In this document: positions 18,201-63,429 of the stretch, one piece after another
How the letters are laid out: the number at the start of each line of letters is the position of its first letter
Numbering within the stretch: position 1 is the stretch's first letter
Assembly (NCBI RefSeq): GCF_030684315.1
Contig: NC_081383.1
Span: forward strand, 26,705,942 to 26,769,941
DNA: 64,000 nt
Source of the DNA: Stegostoma tigrinum
Lineage: Eukaryota
Direction of reading: 5' to 3'
Made by a program: the position numbers and the translations under genes
The notes under the pieces: model-generated
What the model was told of the DNA's origin: nothing
Database searches by the model: none
The model's input: the letters and a program-made list of their open reading frames with translations, nothing else

Positions 18201-19548
18201 GACGTGGTGTACATGGACTTCAGTAAAGCCTTTGATAAGGTTCCACATGGTAGGCTATTGAAGAAAATACGAAGGCATGGGATTGAGGGAGATTTAGCAG
18301 TTTGGATTAGAAACTGGCTTTTTGTAACGAGTGGTGATTGATGGAAAATATTCAGCCTGGAGTCAAGTCACTAGTGGTGTGCCTCAAGGATCTGTTTTGG
18401 GACCACTGCTGTTTGTCATTTTTATAAATGGCTTGGATGCAGACATAAGTGGATGGGTTAGTAAGTTTGCAGATGACACTAAAGTCTGTGGAGTGGTGGA
18501 CAGTGTGGAAAAATGTTGCAGGTTGCAGGAAGACTTGGATAAACTGCAGAATTGGTCTGAAAGGTGGCAAGTGGAGTTCAATGCAGATAAATGTGAGGTG
18601 ATTCACTTTGGGAAGAATAATAGGAAGGCTGAATACTGGGTCAATGGAAAGATTCTTGGTAGTGTGGACGTGCAGAGGGATCTTGGTGTCCATGTACATA
18701 GGTCCCTGAAAGTTGCCACCCAGGTTGATAGTGCTGTTAAGAAGGCTTATGGTGTGTTAGGTTTTATTGGTAGAGGGATTAAGTTCCGGAGCCGTGATGA
18801 CATGCTGCAACTGTACAAAATGCTAGTGCGGCCTCACTCGGAATATTGCATGCGGTTCTGGTTGTCCCATTACAGGAAGGATGTGGAAGCATTGGAAAAG
18901 GTGCAGAGGAGATTTACCAGGATGTTGCCTGGTCTGGAGCGCAGGATCTATGAAGAAAGTGTGAGGGACTTGGGACTTTTCTCATTGGAGAGAAGAAGGC
19001 TAAGAGGGGATTTAATAGAGACATACAAGATGATCAGAGGATTAGATAGGGTGGACAGTGAGAGTCTTTTTCCAATGATGACGACGTCAGCTTGTACGAG
19101 GGGGCATAGCTACAAATTGAGGGGTGATAGATTTAAGACAGATGTCAGAGGCAGGTTCTTTACTCAGAGAGCGGTAAGGGCGTGGAATGCCCTGCCAGCC
19201 AATGTAGTTAACTCAGCCACATTAGGGGCATTTAAACAGTCCGTGGATAAGCATACGGATAATGATGGGATAGTGCAGGGGGATGGGCTTAGATTAGTTC
19301 ACAGGTCGGCGCAACATCGCTGGCCAAAGGGCCTATTCTGCGCTGTCATGTTCTATGGTCTATGTTCCTTCATTTTGCTGACAGTGATGGCAAGATTGTT
19401 GTCTTTACACCAATGCCACTAAGCAATCAATCTCTTTCCTGCATTCTGTCTCGTTATTTGAGATCGGTATATATATGATGGTCATGTCGTCATCAAACTT
19501 TTAAATGGAGTTGAAGTGGAATTTAGCCACACGGTTGAGAGTGTATAA
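15245..19548 (-). mobile_element. Older Rex1/Babar-like LINE 3' fragment split by the CR1 (15245-15960 and 19366-19548)
   Basis: The two flanks join on the minus strand to a WCKDNNL..VSK.KELVIEFRK-like RT C-terminal motif; 3' end resembles 56865-57220. Confidence 0.65.
15961..19365 (+). mobile_element. Long CR1 LINE (ORF1 3' half, EN plus RT with stops/frameshifts) in SPPL2B intron 2
   Basis: HIGTNN/DGLH ORF1, GDFNFPDIDW EN, GVPQGSVLGPLLF and FADDTK RT, TTCTATG-like tail. Confidence 0.95.
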
Positions 19549-24003: not shown

Positions 24004-24288
24004 CTTTCGGATGAGGTTCGGACCCCTCCAGAGACCACAATGGTAGCGTCCACTCAGGGTCCGAACAATCCAAACACACAAAAATAGGGGGAGCCTATTT
24101 TGAGGAAAGCCGGCGGCGAACGGCCGATTAACTTCGGTTTTGACTGGAGACCCAGAAGCGGCCGGTGCCGAGGGGAGGGACCCCTGACGGTGAGGGGCGG
24201 GGCAATGGGGCGGAGACAGCCGGAACTCGGGTCGGCTGCCGAGGTTAAAGGTCATGGGGTTGTGGGGTTAGAGGTCGTGGCCGTGATG
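24004..24288. promoter_or_regulatory. Bidirectional CpG/GC-rich promoter shared by SPPL2B and LSM7
   Basis: Divergent ATGs ~285 bp apart, locally high CpG, GC box GGGGCGGGG near 24194, ETS-like CCGGAA near 24220, YY1-type CGCCATCTT overlapping the SPPL2B ATG. Confidence 0.85.
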
Positions 24289-24294
24289 ATGGCG
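24289..24294 (+). CDS. LSM7: LSM7 exon 1 coding part (ATG GCG)
   Basis: ATGGCG|GTGAGT strong donor; gives MA-DKEKKKKESILDL in frame with exon 2 (an adjacent in-frame ATG at 24286 is also possible). Confidence 0.88.
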
Positions 24295-24645
24295 GTGAGT
24301 GTGTGTGTGCGGTCTTTGCTGGTGGCTGAGTTTTAAAATCTCGGGGGTTGTGTTTGGGGAAAAGAAGGCCTGTTAATGGCCCACTGGAGCCTCCGGTTAC
24401 ATTTATTATCTAATTCTTTCCTTGGGCCTATGAAAGTGGAACACCGGTTTTGTTATAACCCCCCCCCCCCCCCCCCCAATTTGGCGGTTTGTTCGTGGCC
24501 GTGTCAGAATCTCTGAGTGGGACCAGGTCGATTTAGCTGTCACGGAAACCTTGCGGGCTATCGGAGGCTCGGGTACCGATCACGAGAAGCTCGGATTGCA
24601 AGAATCGGGTTCTAACTTTCTTTGTTTTTGTTTCTTTGAATTCAG

Positions 24646-24736
24646 GATAAGGAGAAGAAAAAGAAGGAGAGTATTCTCGACCTCTCCAAGTACATAGACA
24701 AAACAATCCGTGTGAAATTTCAAGGTGGACGAGAAG
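24646..24736 (+). CDS. LSM7: LSM7 exon 2 (DKEKKKKESILDLSKYIDKTIRVKFQGGRE)
   Basis: Long pyrimidine tract-TTCAG acceptor, 91 nt, Sm1 motif; donor G|GTGCAG. Confidence 0.97.
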
Positions 24737-25469
24737 GTGCAGTTTTTTAAAATTTCGTCTATATATGTTACGTAAGGTTGACTTTTACCAGACTACAACA
24801 GCTGTAGTCTTTCCCCAACCAAAATAGGCAGGCTGTTTGGACAAACGTGGTTGAGTTTGGGAAAGGCTTAGGGGCTAGGAGCAGGTAGGTGGGACTGGTT
24901 TTAGTTTGGAATTGTAGTCCACATGGACTGCCTGGACCGAATGGTCTCTTTCTGTGATTGGGAAAGATAAAAGAACTGTGATACAAATTGTATCAAACCA
25001 ATAAAAAGTCAGTATAAACCACATCTTATTCCTTTAGGAGTAGTGCTGTAAGTATTGTTTTACTACTTAGTTTAAGCTGGTCAGAGGCTCCTGTAAATTC
25101 TTCAATTTGGTTAAAAAGCTGCTGAGGTCAACTTCAAAATGACTAGAATCTCTAACAATAATCTTTCACCTTCAAGACAATGAATTGGGAAATGATGTAG
25201 ATACTACACTTACTGAAGAATTGTTTTAGTTCTTTGCTGTTAAATTCATAAGGTAAAATGACTTCAACTGAGAATTTGAAGCTTTACTGTTTCAGAACAG
25301 TTTCATTGGTTGTTACTGAAGTCTGCTTTGGGAAAGTTTGGGTGTTGAAGGGGAAAACAGTAAAAGATCTTGTGTATTTTGAGGTAATGTATGTTTTGAC
25401 TCTTGTATAGTGTCTGATGTTGTAGTTCACTTGAAATTTGGTGAAATGTGTTTGGTTTTTTTTTGACAG

Positions 25470-25541
25470 CTAGTGGGATTCTGAAAGGATTTGACCCACT
25501 CCTCAATCTTGTATTGGATGGAACAATAGAGTATGTGAGAG
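25470..25541 (+). CDS. LSM7: LSM7 exon 3 (ASGILKGFDPLLNLVLDGTIEYVR)
   Basis: TTTTGACAG acceptor, GTAAGC donor, 72 nt; GILKGFDPLLNLVLD Sm1 motif. Confidence 0.97.
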
Positions 25542-25624
25542 GTAAGCCCCAAAGATGTTCCTAGTTTTTATAACTTGATGGACAATCTATGAAACAAAAA
25601 TTGTGAAGTGTATTCTAGACTACA

Positions 25625-25711
25625 AAAGTGTAGAGTTGGATGGACACAGCAGGATCCGAGGAGCAGGAAGGCTGACATTTTGGGCCCAGCATCTGCAGTT
25701 CCTACTATCTC
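25625..25711. mobile_element. Degraded fold-back PLE mini element (family B) in LSM7 intron 3
   Basis: Inverted GTGTAGAG..GGATG..AAGGCTGAC part fused to the tail CCAGCATCTGCAGTTCCTACTATCTC. Confidence 0.7.
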
Positions 25712-28427
25712 TGTCTGTAAAGTGACTTCCAGTTTTTCTGATTTGAAAAACATTGTATGACTTTTGATTTTAGTTTTTTTTTGCATAGCTCCTCTTCTCT
25801 TTATCATCTTCCCTTCTAAACACTTTTGTATGCAGCTTAATTTTCAGCTGTATTTTCTACCTGCTAGTTACCATAAACACTTTTTTTTTCTGTTTTTTTT
25901 ATCCAAAGAGCTCTGGATTTTTCTTTTGCTGTATTTTTGTGAGGAAATATACATTGTGCCAGAACCCTTTTTTTTTTGTTTTAATCTATCTTTTGGAAGG
26001 CATCTTATTGCACATGTAATCTTTCACTCTGCCCTTTTGATCCAGACTAACAAGAACAAGTCTGTTCTTGCCCCATTAAAGTCTGCTCTGTCTAATTATC
26101 CTTAGTTTGCTTTGTCTCTTGTTGCCACGGTCCTCCCAAATTTCATGATACAATGATCACTGTACCTTTTTTTAAAGGTTACCCTACTGATACTACTTCC
26201 TAAGAAGTAAGTCCAGCAGTGCTTTCTTTTTTAACTTGTTGCATTGATGTACTGCTGTTGGAAATTCTTTTAAATGCATTCCAAGAATGTATGTTTGTTT
26301 GCTTTTCTCTTTTTCCTAACTACCACTATTCCAACTTCAATTGGAGTAATTGAAATCTCCCACATACTCTTTGCTTGCATTATTCTGTAATTTCCTTACT
26401 GATTTGTTCCTCTACATCCCTATTACTAACTGGTGGCCTGTAAACTACACCCAGCAATATAATGGACTCCCCTTGTACCTTTTGCTCCAGCCAAGTTGAT
26501 TCTGTCCTTGAAGCCTTTTTTTTCCTCCCAAGCAGCTGTCCTTCACCAAGATTACCACTGCGTTGCTTTCTTGCTTTACCCTCTCCCTGTAACTAGGAAT
26601 GTTTAGTACTTAGTTCAGCCTTTCCTTTGCCCAGCCTGTTATTGCCACAGTATTATAACTCAATGTGGCGATCTGTACTTGTAACTTGTCAATCCTGTTT
26701 ACTTCCATTCATATGCACAGTTGTAATTTCTCCCTTTAATCCAGTTATTAATTTGTTCTACACTCTAATCTTTTAATGAGCTTTCTAAATTCTTACTACA
26801 GGACTACATCACCACTCATTTCTACATAAATACCAATGTAGACCATGATCTGCAGTTGAACGCATCCCTCGGGAAGAATGTCCTGTAATTACTTTGTGAC
26901 ATTCTTGATTCTAACACCTGTGAAAGAAAATGCATTGCTGGCATCACATCTTTGACTGCAGAAATGTCTCTAGTCTCCTAACAAATCAGTTCCTTTTTAA
27001 CTGCTGCTTTCCCCCTTTTCCTTCCTTCCCTCCCAAATAGCTGGCTCACTCATGTTGCCATAGGCTTAGCATCTCCTCTGAAAACCTTTACCATTATCAG
27101 AATGAAAACTGATTCTTGAGTTAAACCCCTGCATTGTCTTCCTGGTTCTCTTGGACTGTCTGATAGTCACATGTTCCTGATCTGCCTGCATGCCTCTAAC
27201 CTACACTTATACTGGCTCTGTGAACATGCTGTCTGTAACTTGCAGCCTCGTGGATGCAATGCAGTTGGTCTGCTTTCTGTAACTAGTGGTACTTGTATAT
27301 ATTCTTCCAGGTCATTTTCAGGATTCTAGATGAATAAACTCGCAGTTCTCCCACAGGTATTGCTTTTCTTAAACTTGGTGCTTTCATACAGCTTCTCAGC
27401 TCCTTGTCCCCAAGTCTTTGTAAGTGATCAGAAGTGTCAGACATTAAGTAAAGTGTCAAAAATTGAAGGGATCTCCTGTAATCCAATTAATTGAGGTAGA
27501 GGTGTAATTAGAATTTTTTAAAAATTCTGTTTGGAGACAAACCAAGCAGCTGGAATAACATGGGTATAAAAGTCACACACCAAGGGTCTAACCAAAGTAA
27601 CAAGTAATCCAAAACTCTACAAATTAAGGTAGAGGGAGATCCTCAGAAGTTATAAAGGTGATCGTGTCCAAAAGGGCAAGTAAGGAAGATTTTTTTTTAC
27701 AGTTGCAGAGCAGTTATGGGTTTGCATGTAGTGTGACATGAAGCCAAGATCACAGTTGAGGGTGCCTTCATGGGCATGGAACTTGGCCATCAGTTTCTGC
27801 TTTGCCATTCAGTGTAAATCCAGAATTGATTATTCCAGCATACATGTCACCTGCCTTCCATGTTATGACATCCATAAACTTGCCATCCAAAATTCTACTG
27901 CCTGTTGTCACTGACACCTAGTCCAATCTGGGCAGTAGCATGGTGTTATTTGAAAATTTGGCTGCCACTTCAATTTCTCTATTCTCCCTATCATGATGAT
28001 CTCTCGGTCCTTACAACCCTTTCATCAGTATTATAATTCTGGCCTCTTTGAGCTATGTTTGTTTTTGTTGTTGCAACACTAAGGGGCTATACCTACAGGG
28101 GCAAAGCCTTCAGGTCTAGAAATCACTCCCTAAATCTACATTTGTCTTGTTTCTCTTTCCTCACTACTCTTTTATTTTAAAACCTGCTTTGGTCAGCTGC
28201 CACATGTTTCCTTTATGTGATTTAGTGTCAGGTTTTCCTGTATACCATGTTGGAGCATGATTGAATTCAATGTTTAATTCAATACTTTTTAAAGTCCTTC
28301 AAATGAAGTGTTATGTAATTTCTAATTAAAACACGTTTACATCTCATCACATTTAGCATGTTCCACATAGTTTTACACTTTATGTAACTGGAGTCTAGCT
28401 TTTTAAACTTAACATTACTAATTTCAG

Positions 28428-28570
28428 ATCCAGATGACCAATACAAATTGACTGAAGACACACGACAGCTTGGCTTGGTTGTATGCAGAGGAACATCAGT
28501 TGTTCTGATTTGCCCACAGGATGGGATGGAGGCAATTCCAAACCCTTTCATACAACAACAGGATGGTTAA
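28428..28570 (+). CDS. LSM7: LSM7 exon 4 coding part (DPDDQYKLTEDTRQLGLVVCRGTSVVLICPQDGMEAIPNPFIQQQDG*)
   Basis: TTTCAG acceptor, Sm2 motif LGLVVCRG, TAA at 28568-28570; total CDS 312 nt = 103 aa plus stop. Confidence 0.97.
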
Positions 28571-35094: not shown

Positions 35095-35720
35095 TCACTT
35101 ATAGGACATGGGCATTGCTGGTTGGTCCAGCATTATTGCCTGTCCCTAGTTGCCCTTTAGAAGATGGTGCTGAACTGCTGCCTTCAACTGCTATGGGTTG
35201 ACCCACAATGCCACTAGGGAGGGAATTCCAGCATTTTGACCCAGCAAGAGGTGAGGTAGCAGCAATTATATTTCCCATCAGGATGATGAGTGGCTTGGAG
35301 GAAACATCGAAGGTGGTGATGTTCCTATATACCTGCTGCCCTTGTCCTTTTTAGAAGTAGTTCTGTGTTTAGAAAGTGCTGTGTGAGCATCTTTGAATTT
35401 TTGCGGTGCATCTTGTGATAGTACACACTGCTGCTGAGCATTGGTGGTGGAGGGCGTGGATGCTTGTAGATGTGGTGCTGATCAAGCAGGCTGCTTCGTC
35501 CTGGATGATATCAAGCTTCTTTTAAGTGTTTGTTGGGGCTACACTCATCCAGACAGTGGGGACTATTACATCACACTCGACTTGTGCTTCGTAGATGGTG
35601 GACAGGCTTTGAGGAGTCAGGAGTGAATTACTTGCCACGATATTCCTAGCTTCTGACATGCTCTTGTCGGCTCTATTTATGTGGTGAATCTAGATGAATT
35701 TCTGGTCAATGGTAACCCCC
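35095..35720 (-). mobile_element. LINE 3' fragment, family unassigned
   Basis: Interspersed repeat also seen at ~3500-3690 and ~30060-31150. Confidence 0.5.
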
Positions 35721-35872
35721 AGGTGCAGTGATTATCTAAATTTAATTAAAACTATTACAAAGCAAAACTTTGAAATATTCTTACCCATAGGTGCTAGCGA
35801 GTTTTGAGAAGATTTGTAGCTCGGGTTGGGGTTCTGGATGTGAGTTTGCTCGCTGAGCTGGAAGGTTAGTTT

Positions 35873-35912
35873 TCAGACGTTTCGTCACCATTCTAGGTAA
35901 CATCATCAGTGA
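35873..35912 (-). ncRNA. Minimal type I hammerhead ribozyme motif (mirror copy)
   Basis: Exact reverse complement of 36763-36802. Confidence 0.85.
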
Positions 35913-36762
35913 GCCTCCAAAGCGCTGGTGTTATGTCCCACTTTCTATTTATCTGGTTAGGTTTCCTTGGGTTGGTGATGTCATTTCCTGTTCTTTTTCT
36001 CAGGGGGATGGTAGATGGGCTCCAAATCAGTGTGTTTGTTGATGGAGTTCCGGTTGGAATGCCATGCTTCTAGGAATTCTCGTTCATGTCTCTGTTTGGC
36101 TTGTCCTAGGATGGATGTGTTGTCCCAATCAAAGTGGTGTCCTTCCTTATCTGTGTGTAAGGATACAAGTGATAGTGGGTCATGTTGTTTTGTGGCTAGT
36201 TGATGTTCATGTATCCTGGTGGCTAGCTTTCTGCCAGTTTGTCCAAATGTAGTGTTTGTCACAGTTCTTGCAAGGTATTTTGTAGATGACGTTTGTTTTA
36301 TTTGTTGTCTGTATAGGGCCTTAAGTTCATTAAAACAGCAGCTAATGAACTTAAGGCCCTATACAGACAACAAATAAAACAAACGTCATCTACAAAATAC
36401 CTTGCAAGAACTGTGACAAACACTACATTTGGACAAACTGGCAGAAAGCTAGCCACCAGGATACATGAACATCAACTAGCCACAAAACAACATGACCCAC
36501 TATCACTTGTATCCTTACACACAGATAAGGAAGGACACCACTTTGATTGGGACAACACATCCATCCTAGGACAAGCCAAACAGAGACATGCACGAGAATT
36601 CCTAGAAGCATGGCATTCCAACCGGAACTCCATCAACAAACACACTGATTTGGAGCCCATCTACCATCCCCCTGAGAAAAAGAACAGGAAATGACATCAC
36701 CAACCCAAGGAAACCTAACCAGATAAATAGAAAGTGGGACATAACACCAGCGCTTTGGAGGC

Positions 36763-36802
36763 TCACTGATGATGTTACCTAGAATGGTGACGAAACGTCT
36801 GA
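36763..36802 (+). ncRNA. Minimal type I hammerhead ribozyme motif (family A)
   Basis: TCA-CTGATGA-T-GTTACC-tagaat-GGTGAC-GAAA-C-GTC-TGA: complete core, 6-bp stem II, 3-bp stem I, palindromic ACGT in place of stem III. Confidence 0.85.
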
Positions 36803-39125
36803 AAACTAACCTTTACAGCTCAGCGAGCAAACTCACATCCATATTCTTACCCATAGTTACCAGACAAATTTTTCACATATGTACCCAATACAGAAACATC
36901 ACCTTAAAAAACAGGCATCCATTCAGTTTATTGTAAGGCACCATTTTATTAAGGTTTCAATGAGTTTACATCCATTTGCCAAAAAAACTTCGGAACTGGA
37001 ACCATAATCCTAGTGTCTAACCTCCCTCTTACTATCTATCTCAACTGCACATTATCTTCATTCCTCATCTATCTGGTTATTTTCTTCATCCATGCCCAAC
37101 ACCACGCCCATACATTTGAATGTGATACTGTTCAGTACATTTGACACTGTCTGTCTATTTGGAGAGTTGTGCACAGATTCTCCCAAGATTCTAACTCCAT
37201 AGAATCAGAGATTTAATGTGGTTTATGTACTCTCATTCACAGCCAGCAAGCTGTTTGTCATGCAAGACACACTGGACTGAGGCTAAAAGAAGTCTTATTA
37301 GGCTTATGCAATGTAAACTTGCAAGCAGATTAGTTCAGAAACGATAAGACTTGTATGCTGTTTTAAAGTAGAACTTGATAGTTATAGGAATGCACTGTAT
37401 GTAATTTTTTAAAAAAAAAAAAATTCTAATGCTCTAAACTCAACCATGCAATTGATCCTACTGTTAGGTTAACTTTGTCCAAACAAAAGCTCTAGTAGAA
37501 GACAACTTCACAAGTTTTTACTCCCTGTGAGACTTGTCATAATTGCTGGGCTCGTATGTTTTTCACTCACTTTCAGCAATTTTATTTTTTCCATGAGTAT
37601 TAGTGTCAGTGCAGGTTCTGTGATTACACTTCATGCTCCACATTCTGCTGCAATTCAACCATTCTCATTAATGACTGACTTTTGGTGATCGCAATAAATT
37701 AATAAACTTAGAAAGCATTTCTATCCCATTCAGTGCAGACATTGAGAACAGGATCAGGATTGCCAAAATTGCTTCTTGCACTCACAGCAGTACTAAACTT
37801 TTTTTCAGCTAAGACCAAACAAAAGGAATCAATCAGTTGTACCACAATTAATTTCTGTGCTGCTAAGATAGGTAGGGAAATCATTCTGTACATGTGCTAT
37901 TACCAATGTCTGGCATTTTCTCCTGCAAAGTATGCATGCAGATGTGAGACAAGAACAGAAGTGACCTTGGCCAGAAGGTTCTCTGTAATTCAATGGCCCA
38001 AATTATCACTATGTCACAAGAAACTAGATACCAAAGTGAGCTCCTGGTGGGTAACTGGCCCCCACAGGAAATTCTAACCCAACCTCAGTGAAAGGCAACA
38101 TTCTCATGAGTGGAAAGGTGTTAATTAAAAAGAAAATACCATTGAAATGTTTGTACCTTCTCATTAAGTCACCTGAACTTCTGCATCCCGCACAAGTTGC
38201 AAATCCACACTGAAATCCAAAATCTGATAGTTTTGTTATATAGATGGACTTTTCTTTTGAAGATATGAGATGCAACAATTAAACATCACTCTAAACACAG
38301 TCATTTCAGGGTTTATTGAGAGTCAAAAAATAAACCACACAAGGCCAAAAACACCTTCAATTTTATTGATTCAGGCAATCTTACAAAAAAAGACATACAG
38401 CTCAGTTCAAGAAATACAAGGGGCTGTTTCTTTGTAGATATAAGCTGGTATCAGGAGCAACAGGTTCCCTTCAAAGGAATGTGATCACTTTTAACACGAT
38501 GCAGAGTTCTTTAACACTCAAAGCACAAACTTCATCTTGGCTTAGTTGACAGGGAAAGGCAATGATTCAGATGAATACTTTAAAGGAAGACAGAGGAATC
38601 TAGTGGGGGAAAAAAGAGAATCAATATCTAAATCATTTTAAGACGAAGGTCAAACATAGCAGTTTAGATGCCAGTCAGATCCCAGCTGTAAAAGATATAT
38701 CTGGGTCAGATAAGGAAGTTATGTAAATGTTTAAAACTACATCAGAAAAAGAAAATTTCAATTAGACTGAAAACTCTAGGGGGGAAAAAAAAAGGTATTT
38801 TATAAGCCTACCCTTGCCTAATGTCATCACACAAGCATCTTCCCACAGGAAGTTACTTATTACAACAATAATTTGCATTTATAAAGCACATTTAACATAG
38901 TAAAATCTCCCAAAGGACACATGATCGAAAGCAGACAAAAAAACCAGACAAACACAAAGCCAAAGGAGGACTGAAGACCTAAAGTCTGGTCAATGGTAAG
39001 AAAATTAATTAACACAGAACATTGCAACACAGGAACAGGCCATTTGGCCCACTATGTCTGTGCTGACCATCAAGCCATGCTAAGCTACTACCATCAGCCT
39101 GCGTATGGTCCATATCCCCCTACTC

Positions 39126-42365: not shown

Positions 42366-42709
42366 TGAAGCTGTGGTTCAAAGATAAAACCAGACATAAT
42401 GGCCATGCCCTCCCCATGGTTTCATATTTTGCCATGACTCAAAGTGGAATGATGAAGATTGGACATGCAGGTGAGTAGCCTGATGAATTGTACCTTAACA
42501 AGAATCAGCACTTCCTGCAGTGAAGCAGAGAAAACAGAACAATTGCTCAAGTAGATGGTGATATTTCTCAAATGTGTTTACCCAAGTTCAGTAATTCAGC
42601 ACCAAATAATAATGATATTTATTACATGGTTTTATTTGAGTCTCTAATTAAGAATACAGATACTTACAAATGGATTTACCTGAGTTATGCAACAGTTAGA
42701 CGAATAACA

Positions 42710-42811
42710 CTATGATGCTGCTGTATCAATAAGTTGCATTGTTTGAATACTAATTGGCACTGTGTCACTGTAGCCACCCTTAGACTGCATTTGGCCATGT
42801 ACATCAATCAT
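42710..42811 (-). CDS. CDC42SE2: CDC42SE2-like third coding exon (MIDVHGQMQSKGGYSDTVPISIQTMQLIDTAAS*)
   Basis: T-tract-CTGACACAG acceptor, QMQSKGGY motif, TAG at 42710-42712, downstream donors at 42679 and 42667; protein 86 aa. Confidence 0.92.
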   Translation of the reverse strand: MIDVHGQMQSKGGYSDTVPISIQTMQLIDTAAS

Positions 42812-45795
42812 CTGTGTCAGAAAAAAAAACAGTAAGAGTATAGGAACTCTGGTTAATGTAACATTGCACTGTCAAAACTCACCATCTGTAGCTTTTATTC
42901 TAAATTGTTTTCTGAATACTGCACTCTTTCACTTTATCTTGTTCACAATTCAAGCTTTTTTTAAATACAAAGGATCAGGTCTAACTTCTGACTCGTTCAT
43001 TAAGTCAATTTGTTGACAGCTCATTTACCACTTTCCGCAGTAAAGGTTAGGCAGAAATGGAGATACCAGGTTTACTCTACATCCTATATCATATTTGAGG
43101 TACATTAATTGATCTTAGTACCTTCTGCTTGAGCATAACAAAATCTAAGATCATCCTCCAGTGACCCTTGCTGAACTATTTGATATCAGTTTAAGTGTGG
43201 GACGTTCTCTGAACTGGACAGACATACTAATTTTCTGAACTCACACATGAAGCCACTTAGATAGAACTGGAAGCATACCCCAACATGAGTCACTACCTTA
43301 AGGAGAGGAAGGGAAGAAGTCAAGGAGGAAGTCTTGTTTTAATTATAAATCTGGTGGTTTGCACTATCACAGCTAGGTGGAGCCATTACACTATTTCAGG
43401 ATCAGAAAGGAAGGTATTCAAGAATTCTCCCATGCATTGGTTGCATATTCCATGCCTGAAAATCTAGAGGTACAGTGTTAATTACAGAACCTTTCACTTG
43501 CTTTGGCATCTTTGACACATGAATTGTAAGTGCGAACAAAGCCTCAAAGTGGAGGGATTCTGTGTTTGTTGCTCTGCCTTCACAAACTCTCAGCTGTTCT
43601 TAATATTGCATGTCATGCTCTCCCTCTGGCCCCAACACTAAAAGCCATGCCTTCAACTGCCTTGGACCCACATTCTCAAATTACGAAGCCCCTGACACTT
43701 ACACTCTCCCTTTTGAAATATCCTTAAAGTACATCTCCTTGGTCAATCTTTAGATGACTTTTTTCCTAATAACTTCTTCTTTCAGTTTAGCTTTTAACTT
43801 TTCTTCACTCCCCTGTGAAGCCACTTGGGATGTTCTGCTACATGCAAATAGTGGTGCTTGGACCATTTGTATTCTAACAAGTGCTTACTATAGAGGGCAT
43901 AAATTGGTTTGTTGATAGGACTTTAAACTATCAAACAAGGAAGGTAAGGGTTCAACCAAATGTATTACTAAACTAAAGATAAGAAAAATTGAGACACGAG
44001 CAGAAGAACAGGATATAAAAAGAGATAAAAATCAGAGAATGGAAAAGGTCATGTGAAGTAATAAGTACATGATAAACATAAAACTGGTAATGAAAAATAA
44101 CCTCATTATATTTACTGCATAGCAGCATAACAGTGACAAGGGCAACTGCAGTCAATAATTAAAAGTGAATAAGTACTGTTGGTATAATAAGGATACTGGA
44201 AACAAAGCTGTAGACAGAACCAGCTTGCAAGTTAAATATTACAGACTTTCATGCATTTTGAAAGAGAATAAAGGAGTGGTTTGCTATACTAATCAAATAC
44301 AATGGCAGAAGCAAGACATGGCATAACTAAGAAAGAATCCAAATAGATTAAGACAAAAAGGAAGGAATCAGCCAAACTATTCAGGATACAATACAGAGCA
44401 CAGAATGGCACGAATTAACAGGAAAGTAAAATAGATAGGTATAAATGAAATGAACAGAACGAATTGAATCATAGGAGACTTCAACTGTCCACAAGTAAAC
44501 TGGCAAGGAGATGACAATCTGAAGGAAATCAGATTTTTACATTTTGTACAAGTTTCTGATGCACTTATAAAATTGGGACAAGTGAAGAAGCAAATGTGAA
44601 AGAACACATGGGGGGAAAAATCAAAACTGAACTCTTTGGGTAATGATCGAGAACAACGTAGACAGTGCTAAAAGTGAACTAATAGAAGAATATCTTATAT
44701 TTATGTAGCACTTTTAACATAATGATCCATCCCAAAGTGCTTCTCAACAGCATTATAATAAAAAGTTTGACATCAAGTCACATAACGAGATATTAGAGGC
44801 CGAGCGGTATAATTACAGGTGGCGAGGTATAGAAAGGAACTTCCAAGCAACAGAGTCCAGGCAAGTGAATGTGTAGCTACAAACAGTGATGTGATTACAA
44901 CTGGAAATTCTCAATAAACCATAACTAGATGAGTGCAGATATCTCAGATGGTTTTGGAACTGTGGATGTGCTAATTGAGATGATGCAAATGATTTGAAAA
45001 CAGATATGAGAATTTTAAAGCCAAAAAAATTGCTTGACTGGGAATCAATTGCAGTCACAGGATTGACTGGTGAATGACACTTGGAAGAAGTTAAGACACT
45101 GGCAGAGTTTTGGATGTATTCAAGTTTGTGGACAGTAGAATGTGGGAGAGCAGCCAAATGCGAACAGACTGATTTCATCTCAGGGGAGAGTAATGAAGTC
45201 ACCATTTTAATCAGAAATGAACTTCCAATTGCATATTCATGCCAGCAGTAAGCTCATATTTCCACCTCCAACAACATTGCTTGATTTGATGCTTTTCTCT
45301 GCTCATGTGTTATTGAAATCCTCATTCATGTCTTTACCTTCTAGGTGACTATTTCAATGCAGTCTCCCTCTATCTATCTGTGCAACCGAATCCAGCTCAA
45401 AGTACTCCAGAACACCTATAGGTGGATTTGGAACAGGAGTCAGAAACAATGCCTTTATTCTCCTCCATATTTAAATCAGAGGAAATTTCTGCTTATAATT
45501 TTAAAGTGAAAGGCAAGAGGTTTGGAGGGGATTTGAGGAAAAACATTTTCACCCAGAGGGTGGCAGGGATCTGGAATATACTTGAGAGAGTATTTGGCCC
45601 TGGAAACTTCAACCTTTAAAAAATTACTTGGATGAGCACTTGAAGTGTCATAACATTTAAGGCTATGGACCCAGTCTTACAGACAAGAAGGAATAGTCTG
45701 GGAAAATGTCAGACGTGTAAATATCAAAAAGGACAATTAAGACAAGGATATAACGACTAACGGCTGAGCAAGAATACCATATTAGAAACACTTAC

Positions 45796-45900
45796 AGAGC
45801 TCATTCGATCCCCGAACATATCTCCGGCCCCCATGTGTGATGTGTGAACAAAATTTGTCGGCTCTCCTATCATACTCCTGTCTATCCGCCTCCGTCTTTT
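45796..45900 (-). CDS. CDC42SE2: CDC42SE2-like second coding exon ([35 protein letters not shown]), CRIB motif
   Basis: TTTTGACAG acceptor, GTAAGT donor, 105 nt phase 0; basic patch plus [18 protein letters not shown] motif. Confidence 0.95.
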
Positions 45901-46139
45901 CTGTCAAAACAGATGTCAAGATCCGGAGTGAGGTCCAGCACTATTTTAATATATAGATGTGACACTGGTAAAACAATGAAGTTCCATAAATTACCATGAA
46001 TATTTAGGCCAATTAATGCAATCAAGCACAAAAAATGCTCTCATGATTTAAGATCTATCCTACCTAAATATGATTACTATAAAATCAGTCCAGTCTGTGT
46101 AGAAAATATTTTAAACATAATGAACTACTGGCTTTAGAA

Positions 46140-47560
46140 ATAGTAGAAGTGTTAGTAATCATTTTCCAAAATTCTGTATATTCTGGAATAGTTCCTACAG
46201 TTGGAAGGTAATAATGCAACCCCACTAGTTAAGTTAGAAGGGAGAGAGAAAATAGATCACTGCTGACCTGTTAGCCTGACATCAGTCATAGGGGAAATGT
46301 AGAATCTATGATAAAAGATGTGACAAACTTGACACTTGAAAAATAAAGGTATAACCATGCAGTATCAACATGGATATAAAGAAAGGAAAATCAGGCTCTA
46401 AAAACCTGTTCGTATTTTTGAGGACATAACTAGCAGAATAGAGAAGGGTAAACAATGGATGAAATATATTTGGATTTTCATTATGGTTCCACAAAGGTTA
46501 GTAAGCAAAATCATTCCACATGAAATTAGCAGGAATATGCTGGCATGGATTTGAGAACTGGTTAACGGACTTAGAACAGACATTAGGAACAAACAGTTCT
46601 TAACCACAGATCAGCAGATAGCAATGGTATGGTCCTACAGCAGTGTTCAGTGCTTGAGTCCAGCTATTCACAATCTATTTCAATAATTTAGATGTGGGAA
46701 CCAAGTTTGCTGATCACACAAAACCAGAAAGGAATGAGAGTTGTAAGGAGGATGCATAGAAGTTTCTGGGGATTTAGATTGGCTAAGCAAGTGGGCACGA
46801 AAACTGTGAACAAAATACAATGTCAAAAATGTGAAGTTATCCACTTTGGCAAGAGAAACAGAATATACAGTATTTCTCATATGAGTGTGTTTGGGAAGTG
46901 TCGATGTCCAAAAGAGACCTGGGTGCTCTTGTTCCTAAATACCTGAAAGCTAACACACAAACTGAAATGGTACGCTGGCCTTTATTGAAAGAAGATTTGA
47001 GTAAAGGAGTAAAGAAGTCATACTGTAATTGTATACAGCCTTGATGAGTCAGAATCTGAAATACTGTGCACAGTTTTGGTCATCTCGCCCAAGGAACAAT
47101 ACACCATATAAGGAGTGCAACAAAGGCTCACCGGATGTATCTCTGGGATGGCAATATTGTCTTTTAACGAGAGTATAAGGGGACTGAGCTCATATCCTCC
47201 AGAGTTTAGAATATGGAAAGTGATCTCATTGAAGCATACAAAATTCTTACAGGGCTCAACAGGGAATTTGCAGGATGGCTGTCTCCCCTGGCTGGAGAGG
47301 TCTAAAACCAGAGGCTTGAGTCTCAGAATAAGAGGTAGATGAAGAGGAATTTCTTTACTTAGAGGGTAGCGAATATTTGAAATTCTCTATGAAGGATGGC
47401 TGTGGAGGCTCAGTCTTAGAGTATATTTTTAGATATTAACAATATCACAGGCTATAGGAATAAGAAAATGGCATTGAGATAGAAGATCAATCATGACCTA
47501 GTCGGAATGTGAAGCAGGTTTAAAGGGCTAAATGAGTGACTTCTGCTCATATTTCTTATA
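46140..47560 (+). mobile_element. Degraded CR1 RT to 3' end
   Basis: KCEVIHFGKRN, LKYCAQFWS and other RT remnants with many stops. Confidence 0.75.
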
Positions 47561-47829
47561 TTCCCAAATAAGCATAACAGACATTATATGCATCATAGAT
47601 AGTTAGCGTTTTAATATCCCTCACCATATCCCTAAAAAAGACATAACTGTGAATACCAAAGAACATCCTAGATTACAAAGCCAAGAGTGTAAGTTCCATT
47701 CTAATTTCTGCCCCTTCTCTTTTGTGAGTATAGAATATCCTACTGAAATCAATTAACATGGCTCTATGCTATGATAAATTCAGTAAACAGTTCGTATATA
47801 GGATTCATTTATTTAAGAAATACACTTAC

Positions 47830-47883
47830 TGGCTGAGGTTGTTCTGCAATACAGCAGTTAAAACATAACCAGAATTCACTCAT
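47830..47883 (-). CDS. CDC42SE2: CDC42 small effector (CDC42SE2-like) first coding exon, MSEFWLCFNCCIAEQPQP (whole exon 47830-48095)
   Basis: ATG at 47883; N-terminus matches the CDC42SE2/SPEC2 N-terminus as I recall it, including the CC pair; acceptor TTTCTGCAG at 48096, donor GTAAGT. Confidence 0.93.
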
Positions 47884-50202
47884 TGTCACAAACTATTTTG
47901 CTGCGTTTGATAAATCCAAACCTATGTTAATAGGTCCTAAAGAAATCTAGGCAGGGGATGTGGATGTTGCAGAATGCCCAAGTACTTGTGCCGTCAATTT
48001 CACGTTCGGTAATTTCTTGGTTATCAATATTCCAACAGCAATTGTTTCTCCTACCGATATTATTGGTGTGTATTGCCAATATTGCTGTAATCAAGCTGCA
48101 GAAACAAAATAAATGCTTGCATTAGGGATATTTTATATAGTTTTAGTTTTGTATTTTAGTCTTATATAATCAAGCAACCAAAACCACACAGTTTCTATGT
48201 TAACTTTAAAAACCAGAAATGTCAAGTAGTGACATTTATACAAAGATATCATGTAATACAGCAAAGTTCTACTTTCAATCTTAATTGTGCTCAGCTAGCT
48301 AATGTGAGACACCAAAGCATATGGGGAGTTATAGTTGGTTTTGCTGTCTGTGAAACTGCAAAGATGAAAATATAGTTTGACTCCTGCTTAGTAATGAATG
48401 ATCCTGTTAGGATGCAGCTGTGTGACAGTGGTTCAGTTCTGAAGTTCCGATTCCACAGAATCAGTGGCTGGGAACATTATTTAAAATGAATACAAGCACT
48501 GCTACGGAACTTAAACATCGGGGAAAGTAAATTTTAAAGAACTTGCATTTTTGTGAGAACACACAAGGAGCCAAACATCAGTGAAAACTGGCGCAGAAGA
48601 ATTAGTCTGAAATGGGGAACTTATACCTTAATCAAAGTAAACATCCAATGAACACACACTCCAGTGAGAGCAAACACAGAGAACCTGAACCCCATTGAGA
48701 ACCAACAGAGAGAAACCCAACACTTGGGACAGTCAGTATCGAGGTTCCCCATCTCCAGTGAGAGTCATTTTCCGGGAAACAAAATTTTCAGTAACAGTCA
48801 GCACATGTGGAACTAAATAGGAGTGAAAACATAGGCAACAAATCCACAGTTCTTGGGAAGCAAATCCCTGACAGGGTCACTCCTCTAGGAGAGAAGAAAG
48901 TAATAGTAAAAGAAAATCTAAATAATAAAATCAGTGAATAATTAGTAAATAGTAGTCTTACTTATGAATTCTATCAAATTTCTGTGAACAGCATCACTGT
49001 CAGAAAAATAAACCACGTAAGCTTCCACCCATGCATTTCACTTGCAGACTCTCTACAGCAATATCCTAACTTAACTAGGCAGCACAGCTTACAGTTCCAA
49101 ATGGATGTTGTCCCTCTGACTGTCGGACAGGACTCTGGAGAGTTTCTTAGTGAATGGATTTTTATCTGATTGCAGAATCCATGGGAAGCTGTATTTTCCA
49201 CAGGGAAATGTTTTCGTAACATGCCCCATGACTCAGATATTCACAGTATGTGTCAGTGTCTCTACAAAGTACTCTTTATCCAGTCAGTCAGACATTTGTG
49301 GTAAATGCTGGAATATTGAAAACCATATCTTCCATAAAAGAACTTTTAATTGTTAGACCATACAGTTCACAATATTAAATAATGTTGAACTCCAGAACAC
49401 ATTGATTGCAGATATTTCTTTCGTAATTTATTTGTAACACTAAACAAAGCTAGTTCTTTTGCTGAATCACACCCATCAAGTCAGCTGGTGCCGCAAATTA
49501 GAGTAAGATCTTAATAAAATTTGAGACTCCCTCATTCTGAAGTTATGAGCAAACATTTCTCGTCTGTTAGATCATAACCAGATTATTGGGTCATTTCACA
49601 CTGACAAGACTGCATTCTGGAAAACCATATGAAAACTAAAGTTGGGAATTTTCACTTTTAAAAAATCTATTTGCTTTGTATAAAAATAGACATCAAAAGC
49701 ACAGAAAATAGGAATGACAATAGGTCATTCAGCCCTTCGAGCCTGCTCCACCATTTCATATGATCATCCTACTTGGTTCCCTGTTCCCACTTTCACCCAA
49801 TAGCCTTTGACCCCTTTAGGCATAAGAACTATAACTAACTCCTTCTTGAAAACACTATATAACAACATATGCAATTTTTAGAAATATGTTTTCATCTATT
49901 TTCTCAAATTAAAGCAATAGATCCTGTTGGGTTACTGTCGCAAAGGGACAGTCACACCTCTTCTACTGGGATAACTCTTTCCATGGATATTCTTTACCAA
50001 GATTTGGAACCTTTTTATGGTGATGCTGTCCCTGAAGAACAGTCACTCTTCCTCAAAGCAACAAGAACAACTGGTCAGTGATAGTGATCAGGTGACGAAA
50101 CCTTGCTTCTATTTTCCTTTCGTAACTGATGAAAGATGTATTCAGTATAATGTCCCTATTGCTGTTATTAGCGATCAGCTAATCCAACAGACTGTGAAAG
50201 GA

Positions 50203-50345
50203 GATAACAAGTGTAGAGATGGATGAACACAGCAGACCAAGCAGCATCAGAGGAGCAGGAAAGCTGATGTTTCGGGCCTAGACCCTTCTTCAGAAAATAT
50301 TATCTCAAATTCTCCAGCATCTGCAGTTCCTACTATCTCTGAAAC
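50203..50345. mobile_element. Fold-back PLE mini element (family B) with hammerhead motif and 13-bp TSD
   Basis: Minus-strand CTGAAGA-AGGGTCTAGGCCC-GAAAC-ATC followed by a plus-strand tail; TSD GACTGTGAAAGGA at 50190-50202 and 50346-50358. Confidence 0.85.
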
Positions 50346-50652
50346 GACTGTGAAAGGAACTTAGCACATTTTTGCATGACTTGGGACTCATTAGATAAAC
50401 TCACTGAGTCATAGGGAAAGTTCTGGAAATTTCTAGTGTTGCACATACATATGTTGGAACATCTCTGCATTTATAAATAGGTGAAAGAGTAGAATCCCAA
50501 ATACTGGGATTGCAGTATTTGCACTGTAGGCCAAATTGAAATTAATACCCTGTTTTTAATGTGAGCTCATCGATAACAGTTATTCTGTTTCTGTAAGATT
50601 TTCCTCCAGAAATGCCATCCGAGGAATTGAAACAAAAGTTGACTGTCCATAC

Positions 50653-50786: not shown

Positions 50787-51109
50787 CTACAGGAAATTTA
50801 AAATTAAAACAGAAAACACTGGAAACAGAAGATAGCTCCACCGGCAACTTGTCTCCTTGCTTTTCAGATGTGTTCTGGTTTGTACTTTATATTTGTTCCA
50901 AATTCAGACTACTTTATATCATTAAGTTGAGAAACATTTTGCTGATTCCAATTTAGGTAAAGCATCCTCAATACCTTCTCTGATCCTGACACAGGTTGGA
51001 TATCTTCAGTAACACCAAGTCACTCAAAAACATAACCCGATCCCATTATAGCCATAGATGTGAATCCCCTCCAGACAGAAGAAATCTCAAGCTCATTATT
51101 GCAGAGCTG

Positions 51110-54075
51110 AACATAGAACAGAGAACAGAGAACAGGCCCTTCAGCCCACGATGTTGTGCCGACCATTGATCCTCATGTATGCACCCTCAAATTTCTGTGA
51201 CCATATGCATGTCCAGCAGTCTCTTAAATGTGCCTAATGACCTTGCTTCCACAACTGCTGCTGGCAACGCATTCCATGCTCTCACAACTCTGTGTACAGA
51301 ACCCGCCTCTGACATCCCCTCTATACTTTCCTCCAACCAGCTTAATACTATGACCCCTCGCGTTAGCCATTTCTGCCCTGGGAAACAGTCTCTGGCTATC
51401 AACTCTATCTATGCCTCTCATTATCTTGTATACCTCAATTAGGTCCCCTCTCCACCTCCTTTTCTCCAATGAAAAGAGTCCGAGCTCAGTCAACCTCTCT
51501 TCATAAAATAAGCCCTCCAGTCCAGGCAGCATCCTGGTAAACCTCCTCTGAACCCTCTCCAAAGCATCCACATCTTTCCTATAATAGGGCGACCAGAACT
51601 GGATGCAGTATTCCAAGCGCAGGCTAACCAAAGTTTTATAGAGCTGCAACAAGATCTCATGACTCAAACTCAATCCCCCTAGCGAGTTTTGAGAAGATTT
51701 GTAGCTCAGGTTGAGGTTCTGGATGTGAGTTTGCTCGCTGAGCTGGAAGGTTAGTTTTCAGTCACCATTCTAGGTAACATCATCAGTGAGCCTCCGACGA
51801 AGCGCTGGTGTTATGTCCCGCTTTCTATTTATCTGGTTACGTTTCCTTGGGTTGGTGATGTCATTTCCTGTTCTTTTTCTCAGGGGATGGTAGATGGGCT
51901 CCAAATCAGTGTGTTTGTTGATGGAGTTCCGGTTGGAATGCCATGCTTCTAGGAATTCTCGTGCATGTCTCTGTTTGGCTTGTCCTCGGATGGATGTGTT
52001 GTCCCAATCAAAGTGGTGTCCTTCCTTATCTGTATGTAAGGATACGAGTGATAGTGGGTCATGTTGTTTTGTGGCTAGCTGCTGTTCATGTATCCTGGTG
52101 GCTAGCTTCCTGCCAGTTTGTCCAATGTAGTGTTTGTTACAGTTTGCCAACACTACATTGGACAAACCGGCAGGAAGCTAGCCACCAGGATACATGAACA
52201 TCAACTAGCCACAAAACAACATGACCCACTATCACTTGTATTCTTACATACAGATAAGGAAGGATACCACTTTGATTGGGACAACACATCCATCCTAGGA
52301 CAAGCCAAACAGAGGCATGCACGAGAATTCCTAGAAGCATGGCATTCCAACCGGAATTCCATCAACAAACACATTGACTTGGAGCCAATCTACCGTCCCC
52401 TGAGAAAAAGAACAGGAAATGACATCACCAACCCAAGGAAACCTAACCAGATAAATAGAAAGCGGGACATAACACCAGCGCTTCGTCTGAGGCTCACTGA
52501 TGATGTTACCTAGAATGGTGACGAACGCCTGAAAACTAACCTTCCAGCTCAGCGAGCAAACTCACATCCAGAACACAATCCCCTGCTAATGAAAGCCAAA
52601 ACACCATATGCTTTCTTAGCGACCCTGTCCACTTGGGTGGCGATTTTAAGGGATCTATGTATCTACACACCAAGATCCCTCTGTTCCTCCACACTGCCAA
52701 GATTCCTATCCTTAATCCTGTACTCAGCTTTCAAATTCGACCTTTCAAAATGCATCACCTCGCACTTATCCAGATTGAACTCCATCTGCCACCTCTTAGC
52801 CCATCTCTGCATCCTGTCAATGTCCCGCTGCAGCCTACAACAGCCCTCTATACTGTCAACGACACCTCCAACCTTCGTGTCTTCTGCAAACTTGCTGATC
52901 CATCCTTCAATCCCCTCATCCAAGTCATTAATAAAAATTACAAACAGTAGAGGCCCAAGGACAGAGCCCTGTGGAACACCACTCACCACTGACTTCCAGG
53001 CAGAATATTTTCCTTCTACTACCACTCGCTGTCTTCTGTTAGCCAGCCAACTCTGCATCCAGACAGCTAAGTTCCCCTGTATCCCATTCCTCCTGACCTT
53101 CTGAATGAGCCTACCATGGGGAACCTTATCAAATGCCTTGCTGAAGTCCATATACACCACATCCACAGCTCGACCCTCATCAACTTTTCTAGTCACATCC
53201 TCAAAGAACTCGATAAGGTTTGAGAGGCATGACCTGCCCCTCACAAAGCCGTGTTGACTGCATTTAATCAAGCCGTGCTCTTCCAGATGGTCATAAATCC
53301 TATCCCTCAGAATCCTTTCTAACAGCTTGCAAACAACAGACGTGAGACTTACTGGTCTGTAATTGCCGGGGATTTCCCTATTTCCTTTCTTGAAGAGAGG
53401 AATTACATTTGCCTCTCTCCAGTCCTCAGGTACGACTCCAGTAGAGAGCGAGGATGCAAAGATCTTCGCAAGTGGCTAAGCAATTGCGTTTCTCATTTCC
53501 CAAAGCAGCCGATGACAAATCTGGTCCAGGCCTGGCGACTTGTCAATCTTAATGTTTGACAAAATTTTCAGCACATCAGTGTCCTCTATCTCTATCCATT
53601 CCAGCATGCACACCTGCTCTTCAAAGGTTTCATTCACTACAAAGTTTGTTTCTTTCGTAAAGACAGAAGCAAAAAACTCATTTAGGGCTTCCCCTACCTC
53701 CTCAGACTCCACACACAAGTTCCCTATGCTATCCCTGATCAGCCCTACTCTTTCTTTGACCATTCTCTTATTCCTCACATAAGTGTAAAATGCCTTTGTG
53801 TTCTCCCTAATCCGTTCTGCCAAGCCTTTCTCATGCCCCCTCCTGGCTCTCCTCCGACCATTTTTGAGCTCTTTCCTCGCCTGCCTGTAATCCTCTAGAG
53901 CTGAGCTTGACCCTAGCTTCCTCCACCTTATGCAAGCTACCTTCTTCCTTTTGACGAGAAGCTCCACTGCTCTCGTCATCCAAGGTTCCTTTATCTTACC
54001 CCTTCTTGCCTGTCTCAGAGGGACATATTTATTCATCACTCGCAACAACTGTTCCTTAAACAGTCTCCACATGTC
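51110..54075 (-). mobile_element. 5'-truncated CR1 LINE (RT) interrupted by a palindromic PLE
   Basis: SQHGFVRGRSCLSNLIEFF, YMDFSKAFDKVPH, GVPQGSVLGPLLF motifs; tandem tail at ~51110-51132. Confidence 0.93.
51679..52575. mobile_element. Second palindromic family-A PLE (arms 51716-52134 and 52149-52574), nested in CR1
   Basis: Mirrored HYIGQTGRKLATRIHE GIY-YIG ORFs; same unpaired tail as the 35791 copy; TSD CAATCCCC at 51671-51678 and 52576-52583. Confidence 0.92.
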
Positions 54076-59340: not shown

Positions 59341-59390
59341 ACCACTTACACCTCCTCCCTCTCAATGTTTTTGTTCTTGAACAAATTGAT

Positions 59391-59508
59391 AAAGTTGCTG
59401 GAAAAGCCCAGCAGGCCTGGCAGCATCTGTGAAGGGAAAAAACAGTTAACGTTTCGGGTCCGGTGGCCCTTCCTCAGAACTGTGTTTACAGCATCCACAG
59501 TTTTTTCA
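59391..59508. mobile_element. PLE mini element (family C) with hammerhead-like motif
   Basis: Minus-strand CTGAGGA-AGGGCCACCGGACCC-GAAA-C-GTT, followed by the plus-strand tail TTTACAGCATCCACAGTT. Confidence 0.7.
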
Positions 59509-61086: not shown

Positions 61087-61114
61087 TGACAAGCGAGTCA
61101 GTTACAAAATGGAG

Positions 61115-61230: not shown

Positions 61231-61290
61231 AGAACTTTGGCACTAATTCCTACTACCTCTCATATGCTAAGCGAATATTCTACCATTTGA

Positions 61291-63413: not shown

Positions 63414-63429
63414 CATGAACCTATACAAT

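Follow-up and report, generated by a model that had tools for sequence, protein, structure and literature searches.

Among the inverted arrangements described for Penelope-like elements (PLEs), head-to-head insertions are the most frequent; they carry a tail on one side and a target site duplication (TSD) of 8 to 10 bp (PMC3846280). The head-to-head arrangement has also been reported for Naiads (PMC8557442) and for D. virilis (PMC2377424). Metazoan PLEs contain dual minimal hammerhead ribozymes (min-HHRs) on opposite strands, approximately 100 to 700 bp apart, and minimal hammerheads of this kind did not cleave as monomers and cleaved only weakly as dimers (PMC4209133). Cleavage by a PLE hammerhead was found to depend on the PLE protein (PMC11167929). 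siRNAs map precisely onto the inverted regions of Penelope (PMC3681739, PMC3136932), and massive A-to-I editing has been described for lizard Penelope (PMC5625713). Non-LTR retrozymes, finally, are defined as non-coding units with hammerheads in direct tandem. With the exception of PMC11167929, the published work is cited here from excerpts.

We analyzed a palindromic insertion (P1) located in a 64-kb stretch of DNA, which in its full length is referred to as the window. P1 is probably a non-autonomous, 5′-truncated copy of a Penelope-like retrotransposon from a carpet shark, inserted in one event as two 3′ ends placed head to head. The same degree of confidence covers our best explanation as a whole, i.e., a twin-primed single insertion from a damaged template that is most likely inert now. 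The layout of P1 is the commonest outcome in the window and is already in print, and the locus is ordinary.

Anatomy and identity of the palindrome

An earlier note on this DNA had described near-identical arms of about 497 bp around a 10-nt spacer, an exact 16-bp TSD, a 45-nt unpaired tail on one side, complete minimal hammerhead cores in both arms and the lack of a reverse transcriptase (RT). Each of these features was recovered (Table 1). Alignment of the reversed left arm with the right arm (498/499 nt) revealed two differences, namely, a substitution (36084/36591) and a substitution combined with a 1-nt indel at 36813 to 36815, and the arms match perfectly over runs of 248 and 222 bp. The length of the tail (44 or 45 nt) hinges on the placement of one A that is common to tail and TSD. 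The TSD copies are identical at 16/16 positions, and the 16-mer is unique in the window on both strands; when the same search was applied to 400 random position pairs, it gave direct repeats of up to 9 nt, with 0/400 pairs reaching 10 nt. The flanks of P1 are 68 to 78% AT. The spacer is not foreign but part of the coding sequence of the element, and it runs on into the right arm: it reads KQQL, as do the Stegostoma PLE proteins P0001 and P0024, within an in-frame LKQQLMN that starts at 36330. A candidate TATA-like 9-mer is present at 36722.

Table 1. Features of the insertion P1 and position of its sister palindrome P2 in the window
Feature	Position	Strand	Remarks
Whole insertion P1	35775..36856		Head-to-head Penelope-like palindrome flanked by 16-bp TSD
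TSD, left copy	35775..35790	+	16 bp; AT-rich site
PLE tail, AC-rich	35791..35834/35835	-	44-45 nt; left arm only; unpaired
Left arm	35835..36332	-	5′-truncated 3′ end of the element; sense reads leftward
Left minimal type I hammerhead	35873..35912	-	Predicted cut after 35876
Putative junction microhomology, head-to-head	36328..36332		At least 2 nt (36331-36332), at most 5 nt by source codons
10-nt loop/spacer	36333..36342	+	Native element sequence of the untailed right arm
Right arm, untailed	36343..36841	+	Terminates at the proximal 3′ boundary of the family
Broken endonuclease-coding remnant	36330..36782	+	Lesions mirrored in left arm
Right minimal type I hammerhead	36763..36802	+	Predicted cut after 36799
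TSD, right copy	36841..36856	+	16 bp
Sister palindrome P2	51671..52583		Same family; inside CR1 LINE; internal control

A protein search with the endonuclease of the sister copy P2, which is in frame, returned 38 homologous proteins. The best of these were 83 to 92% identical, with Stegostoma, Hemiscyllium and Chiloscyllium as the top sources, and an RT motif together with an RVT_1 domain lies upstream of the endonuclease in the homologues P0001, P0004 and P0024. A Pfam search of the P1 and P2 frames gave no significant match, and the identity of the element therefore rests on these homologues. They bear out the Penelope origin that had been proposed for P1, and published precedents exist for its inverted layout, as had been stated, and for its opposite-strand hammerheads. 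The mirrored GIY-YIG open reading frames (ORFs) of the earlier note held up in part. A remnant is present in both arms, but the ORFs are broken by three frameshifts each, and the GIY-YIG motif is split across different frames. The left arm mirrors all right-arm frameshifts (near 36352, 36429 and 36668), and it also shares the 3-nt deletion near 36755 and the missense change at a CpG (36735). With no RT sequence found in P1 and with three frameshifts, the insertion does not have the single intact RT and endonuclease (EN) ORF of an autonomous PLE. It corresponds to a truncated EN+ PLE, with a C-terminal GIY-YIG region, here a frameshifted remnant, that is homologous to RT-bearing PLE proteins. 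P1 differs from non-LTR retrozymes in that its hammerheads are inverted rather than tandem and a coding remnant is present.

The left arm comprises, in this order, the frameshifted GIY-YIG C-terminus, a stop, the hammerhead and the ORF start. As expected of a pseudo-LTR, the 3′ end thus overlaps the ORF start and carries a hammerhead; the optional tail at one end, the two discrete 3′ boundaries and the TSD around the whole unit complete the picture. In the right arm, the stop codon (36780 to 36782) falls in loop II of the hammerhead, and the ORF start codons (36769/36772) lie at the beginning of helix II, with the cut site 28 nt after the start codon. In translation, the tail extends the N-terminal part of the ORF, which begins at helix II. 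This tail peptide is 37 to 47% identical to the Opisthorchis protein P0245, and a region further downstream in P0245 in turn matches the N-terminus of an RT+EN PLE protein (E value of 3e-20). The ORF frame also runs past the tail into the TSD, where the residues resemble the Opisthorchis homologue. Domain order, a DKG motif in the homologue P0009 and the PAc-like anatomy are only suggestive of the Penelope/Poseidon clade. A tRNA scan found none, and a scan for bacterial promoters and terminators, which is not meaningful for a vertebrate, likewise gave zero hits.

Formation and age

Using 3′-end yardsticks of three PLE families, we found 14 Penelope-type insertions in the 64-kb window, comprising 10 head-to-head insertions, 3 single-armed ones and 1 that is cut by the window edge. 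A tailed arm is clearly paired with an untailed arm in 9 of the 10 head-to-head insertions, and the assignment is ambiguous in 1; within each family, the arms terminate at two discrete 3′ boundaries. TSDs were present in six of the ten (16, 15, 14, 13, 11 and 8 bp), while for the remaining four (54583, 59380, 25625 and 30140) repeats were either not recognizable or of chance-level length. The arm that reaches further in the 5′ direction is untailed in 7/10 and tailed in 3/10 cases, as tallied by hand, and in two insertions (25625 and 59380) the second arm consists of the tail alone and does not overlap the first. P2 has arms of about 430 nt that are approximately 96% alike, a tail on the left arm and an 8-bp TSD, which is confirmed by two CR1 paralogues of the window that contain the target sequence once. 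P2 and P1 share both 3′ boundaries within 5 nt, and the tail ends agree within 4 nt. P1 is not special, because 10 of the 14 insertions in the window are head-to-head and one of them belongs to the same family.

In L1 twin priming, a nick in the second strand serves as the primer for another cDNA, and microhomology joins both cDNAs inside one TSD. P1 could have been formed by a similar series of steps. The GIY-YIG endonuclease of the element would have nicked both strands of the AT-rich site 16 nt apart, a spacing deduced from the TSD; PAc, a Poseidon element of Anolis carolinensis, cleaves and extends both strands in vitro (PMC11167929). Each nicked 3′ end would then have primed reverse transcription in the element RNA, one at a distal site, which adds the tail, and the other at a proximal site about 45 nt further inside. 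Two RT start sites have been shown for PAc, and the tail is the stretch between them (PMC11167929); the pairing of the start sites with the two strands is our own suggestion, and it is counted against by Frangieh et al., who observed no difference between the strands in their start sites (PMC11167929). At the tailed end, the continuation of the ORF frame into the TSD hints at about 6 nt of primer-template homology. Both cDNAs would have ended after approximately 0.5 kb and been joined by 2 to 5 nt of microhomology, 10 extra template bases forming the loop. The junction itself is observed, and its mechanism is deduced. Finally, the RNA template would already have been damaged and mobilized in trans, which would explain why the same lesions are observed in both arms. 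Two further observations speak against twin priming: the sample amounts to 10 insertions from one window, and 4/10 are without a recognizable TSD.

In the alternative explanation, which we regard as unlikely, a cDNA or antisense template folds back and primes itself, and the endonuclease resolves the resulting hairpin asymmetrically, trimming the tail from one end. Self-priming has been proposed in print for head-to-head junctions (PMC3846280, in excerpt) and for the tail (PMC8557442, in excerpt), and it would explain both the identical lesions in the two arms and the short self-complementary overlap at the junction. Simple snap-back cannot, however, yield P1, because the loop belongs to the untailed arm and the copy would carry no tail; the tail would thus require the extra trimming step. 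Moreover, in the two insertions with a tail-only second arm, this arm shares no sequence with the first, and the work on PAc ties the tail to two RT start sites with both strands extended (PMC11167929). The polarity of the loop therefore favors twin priming over simple snap-back, as far as sequence features can tell.

Twin priming might even be obligately asymmetric, an idea that we put forward tentatively and rate at somewhat less than an even chance. A PLE dimer would nick both strands, and the two ends would always be primed from different start sites, probably on one RNA. The rear cDNA would either stop at the front one, giving a tail-only inversion, or displace it, giving anything from a short overlap to a full 1-kb palindrome. 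We did not find this idea stated in the literature searched, which consisted mostly of open-access papers. What may be new here is that asymmetric twin priming is argued from loop polarity and one-tail pairing, a suggestion that is equally tentative.

The earlier note had called P1 a young insertion that arose in a single event. The single event stands, and the arms of P1 have diverged by approximately 0.4%, compared to approximately 4% for P2. P1 is, however, only relatively young, i.e., young in relation to P2. At the rate of 7e-10 per generation reported for the epaulette shark (PMC10587355, in excerpt), and if this rate applies, the two differences would have taken about 3 million generations to accumulate (95% range, 0.35 to 10 million). 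P1 could be older than the identity of its arms implies if arm-to-arm gene conversion had spread lesions acquired after insertion. Seven events, derived from 10 alignment columns of which one is P2's own damage, are common to both P1 arms against both P2 arms; at least four are derived in comparison to P0001, and the shared changes include two CpG transitions. One more frameshift, upstream of the part covered by P2, is common to the P1 arms, and just two events are private to one arm. Against conversion, the TSD is intact at 16/16 positions, the tail retains both of its CpGs (at the two positions where it differs from P2, the C-to-T change occurred in P2) and the P2 arms, at about 96% identity, have not been homogenized. 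The test by tail and TSD is weak, with too few unpaired bases and an estimated one change expected where none was seen. Taken together, we consider conversion of this kind rather improbable, and a template that was damaged before insertion remains our preferred source of the shared lesions.

Hammerheads and read-through RNA

The two hammerheads of P1 are exact reverse complements of each other, and every core position is present. The right hammerhead consists of a helix I of 3 bp, a core (36766 to 36772), a bulged U and a helix II of 6 bp that starts with a G-C pair; helix III of both is a palindromic 4-nt stub. They thus display the conserved core, the bulged base at 9/10.1, the G10.1-C11.1 pair and the palindromic 15.2-16.2 positions of min-HHRs. 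Helix I, with 3 bp, is shorter than the min-HHR norm of 4 to 5 bp, and a 2-bp helix I is found in D. virilis (PMC4209133). A minimal hammerhead descriptor matched five positions in the window, all inside Penelope-type repeats, and none in each of 100 shuffles. The Rfam search that had been proposed as a check did not detect them: the covariance models gave no match at the gathering threshold, and the 23 matches obtained at an E value of ≤10 did not include hammerhead families. The miRNA matches among the Rfam results were of the generic long-hairpin type and stayed beneath their own cut-offs.

An active dimer requires a second, compatible sense copy in the same transcript, which P1 does not provide. 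The hammerheads of P1 cannot dimerize in cis, because their cores are located on opposite strands, and both hammerhead cores of P2 are damaged. A heterodimer with the nearest hammerhead on the same strand (39127) was ruled out, since the helices I are incompatible, and no intact partner of the same family and strand was found in the window. The predicted cores of P1 are most likely passengers of the pseudo-LTR.

As the earlier note had anticipated, read-through RNA folded in silico into a hairpin of about 500 bp (minimum free energy of about -1027 kcal/mol). The antisense copy of the ribozyme is transcribed first from either side and the sense ribozyme last, and all RNA prefixes tested in silico that end within the ribozyme were already zipped. 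The probability of helix II was 1e-18 to 1e-22 in the read-through RNA, and forcing the ribozyme fold carried a penalty of 72 kcal/mol; as a monomer, the ribozyme folded with -7 kcal/mol versus -73.5 kcal/mol for the duplex. For transcripts starting inside one arm, helix II reached probabilities of 0.90 to 0.97 and helix I at most 0.03.

P1 is located between convergent 3′ ends, 7.2 kb from the stop of an LSM7-like gene and 5.9 kb from that of a CDC42SE-like gene. The former, which we take to be LSM7, is on the plus strand with its stop at 28570; its exons were recognized from their translations and from short known motifs. On the minus strand are the CDC42SE-like gene, which extends from 47883 to its stop near 42710, and SPPL2B, with its start at 24003. 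The Stegostoma SPPL2B protein is 94 to 100% identical to the host exons in seven of eight blocks; the eighth (74%) spans an intron. The DNA of the window therefore comes from a carpet shark or a near relative. An exon hunt with Pfam covered 331 stop-free frames of at least 48 amino acids outside masked repeats. The three matches with E values of ≤0.001 concerned SPPL2B (twice) and CDC42SE (once), and none of these matches overlaps or brackets P1. A splice donor follows the CDC42SE-like stop, and 12 poly(A) hexamers are spread across the 5.9 kb. A candidate pair of hexamers with a GU-rich stretch is present on the minus strand 71 to 89 nt to the right of P1; it is weak evidence because of the 12 hexamers in 5.9 kb and because the terminal non-coding exon is unmapped. 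Judging from these signals, run-on transcription of the CDC42SE-like gene across P1 is possible.

The earlier note had gone further and proposed a switch, in which the read-through RNA divides in a regulated manner between self-cleavage and a double-stranded hairpin that feeds siRNA production or ADAR editing. In line with this idea, both cores are intact, the hairpin is real in silico, the locus may fall in the run-on zone of the CDC42SE-like gene, and siRNAs from Penelope inverted repeats (PMC3681739, in excerpt) and hyper-editing of lizard Penelope (PMC5625713, in excerpt) are known. Intact cores are, however, expected from recency alone, given only two events in 1 kb. The 72-kcal/mol penalty, the zipped prefixes and the -7 versus -73.5 kcal/mol of monomer and duplex all disfavor the ribozyme fold, helix I does not exceed 0.03 even without the antisense arm, and an intact partner of the same family and strand is absent from the window. 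There is no balance to switch, because the ribozyme is buried, its possible partners are on the opposite strand, damaged or incompatible, and monomers of minimal PLE hammerheads are inactive, with cleavage weak in dimers or dependent on the PLE protein. We therefore consider a switch very improbable. Read-through RNA, if made, would be an ordinary substrate of ADAR and Dicer in which the sense ribozyme is buried, and P1 is most likely inert today. It is hardly credible that P1 is an assembly or read fold-back artefact: the palindrome is near perfect, two shared indels lengthen homopolymers and polishing can equalize arms, but the flanks are unique and unmirrored, the TSD copies are in direct orientation, the loop stems from the element itself, the ends coincide with the two boundaries of the family, the empty site of P2 is preserved in paralogues of the CR1 that P2 interrupts, and nearby host exons are in frame and 94 to 100% identical to the shark protein.

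Comparison with known systems

As a locus, P1 is of little import; dead Penelope fragments like it are numerous, and its components have each been described already. Its near-perfect hairpin of about 500 bp, possibly reached by run-on transcription of a housekeeping gene, offers an easy site to look for ADAR editing and siRNAs in a shark, outcomes that are already known for Penelope elsewhere. If asymmetric twin priming were true, loop polarity and one-tail pairing would constitute a sequence-readable test of the PLE integration step, shark genomes, at the density of about 10 inserts per 64 kb seen here, would provide cases by the thousand, and these inserts would form a natural panel for the stability and conversion of palindromes.

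P1 resembles the 5′ inversions attributed to L1 twin priming in that two cDNAs are joined by microhomology within one TSD. In contrast to L1 inversions, which contain no duplicated sequence, the cDNAs of P1 start within 45 nt of each other, and they therefore overlap and form a palindrome.

The ends, the junction and the TSD of P1 are all intact, which makes it a clean specimen for a step of PLE integration that was left unresolved in papers from 2021 (PMC8557442, in excerpt) and 2024 (PMC11167929). With the endonuclease-bearing PLEs that have inverted pseudo-LTRs (pLTRs) in the excerpted literature, i.e., Adineta Pen2a/Pen2, D. virilis Penelope and Naiad/Chlamys, P1 shares a 5′-truncated inverted copy, a head-to-head junction, an optional tail at one end, a TSD around the whole unit and an ORF start inside pLTR and tail. 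It differs in that both halves are truncated to about 0.5 kb, so that the entire insert is one palindrome. The tail measures 44 to 45 nt compared to 30 to 40 nt in these elements, and the TSD comprises 16 bp versus 8 to 10 bp in the rotifer cases (PMC3846280). The hammerheads match the metazoan PLE min-HHRs, as excerpted, in the core, the bulged base before helix II, the G10.1-C11.1 pair, the palindromic helix III stub and the pairing on opposite strands, whereas their spacing of about 850 nt exceeds that of the published pairs and helix I has 3 bp versus 4 to 5 bp in Schistosoma.

PAc, unlike P1, is an intact and active element, and inverted insertions are not discussed in the main text or the three supplement files of the respective paper (PMC11167929). 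The two nevertheless have much of their anatomy in common. In both, the ORF starts at helix II (stem II), an AC-rich tail lies between the two 3′ boundaries, the target is AT-rich, and the distance from the start codon to the cut site is nearly the same, with 28 nt in P1 and 26 nt in PAc (PMC11167929).

Penelope-like insertions and ribozymes

Other Penelope-like element (PLE) insertions accompany the palindromic PLE insertion P1 in the window (see the table). The four small head-to-head ones were derived from two PLE families other than that of P1. In two further insertions, the second arm consisted of the inverted tail alone, without overlap with the main arm. The single-armed longer remnant retained an 8-bp target site duplication (TSD) and a 367-aa open frame.

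Both hammerheads of the sister palindrome P2 were damaged independently in the same core stretch, one arm by an 8-nt deletion and the other by a 1-nt deletion plus a substitution. The further intact-looking minimal hammerhead cores, which belong to a second family, displayed a helix I of 2 bp and a helix II of 4 bp.

Features of the window around P1
Feature	Position	Strand	Details
SPPL2B	76-24003	-	
LSM7-like gene	about 24286-28570	+	
CDC42SE-like gene	42708-47883	-	
CR1-type LINE copy	505-2636		endonuclease or RT frames
CR1-type LINE copy	5850-8000		endonuclease or RT frames
CR1-type LINE copy	15950-19420		endonuclease or RT frames
CR1-type LINE copy	51109-54075		endonuclease or RT frames
Small head-to-head PLE	10142-10390		15-bp TSD, single tailed arm
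Small head-to-head PLE	50190-50358		13-bp TSD, single tailed arm
Small head-to-head PLE	61277-61505		14-bp TSD, single tailed arm
Small head-to-head PLE	63249-63424		11-bp TSD, single tailed arm
PLE, inverted-tail second arm	25620-25711		
PLE, inverted-tail second arm	59380-59506		
P2, older palindrome of P1's family	51671-52583		within CR1
Longer PLE remnant, non-P1 family	54583-56860		head-to-head; GIY-YIG coding on minus strand
Longer PLE remnant, non-P1 family	60003-61094		single-armed; GIY-YIG coding on minus strand
Minimal hammerhead core, second family	39127	+	intact-looking
Minimal hammerhead core, second family	60104	-	intact-looking

Host genes and their signals

Near 24 kb, SPPL2B and the LSM7-like gene sit head-to-head at a CpG island. 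The protein matches for SPPL2B and CDC42SE both came from one catshark contig, with near-adjacent gene numbers. In the CDC42SE-like gene, the stop is followed closely by a splice donor. P2 is located upstream of its start codon, possibly in an intron, and a GC- and CpG-rich stretch at ~62000-62540 may represent its promoter or non-coding first exon. Its 3′ end could lie at 36927-36950 on the minus strand, 71-89 nt right of P1, where two poly(A) hexamers precede a GU-rich stretch.

Tailed end of P1

A decayed fragment, presumably LINE-like, was observed at ~35200-35730, ending ~50 nt left of the P1 insertion site. At the tailed end, the ORF frame of P1 itself runs on into the TSD at 35784-35790, where its residues resemble those of a distant homologue; this continuation hints that primer and template were homologous there over ~6 nt.
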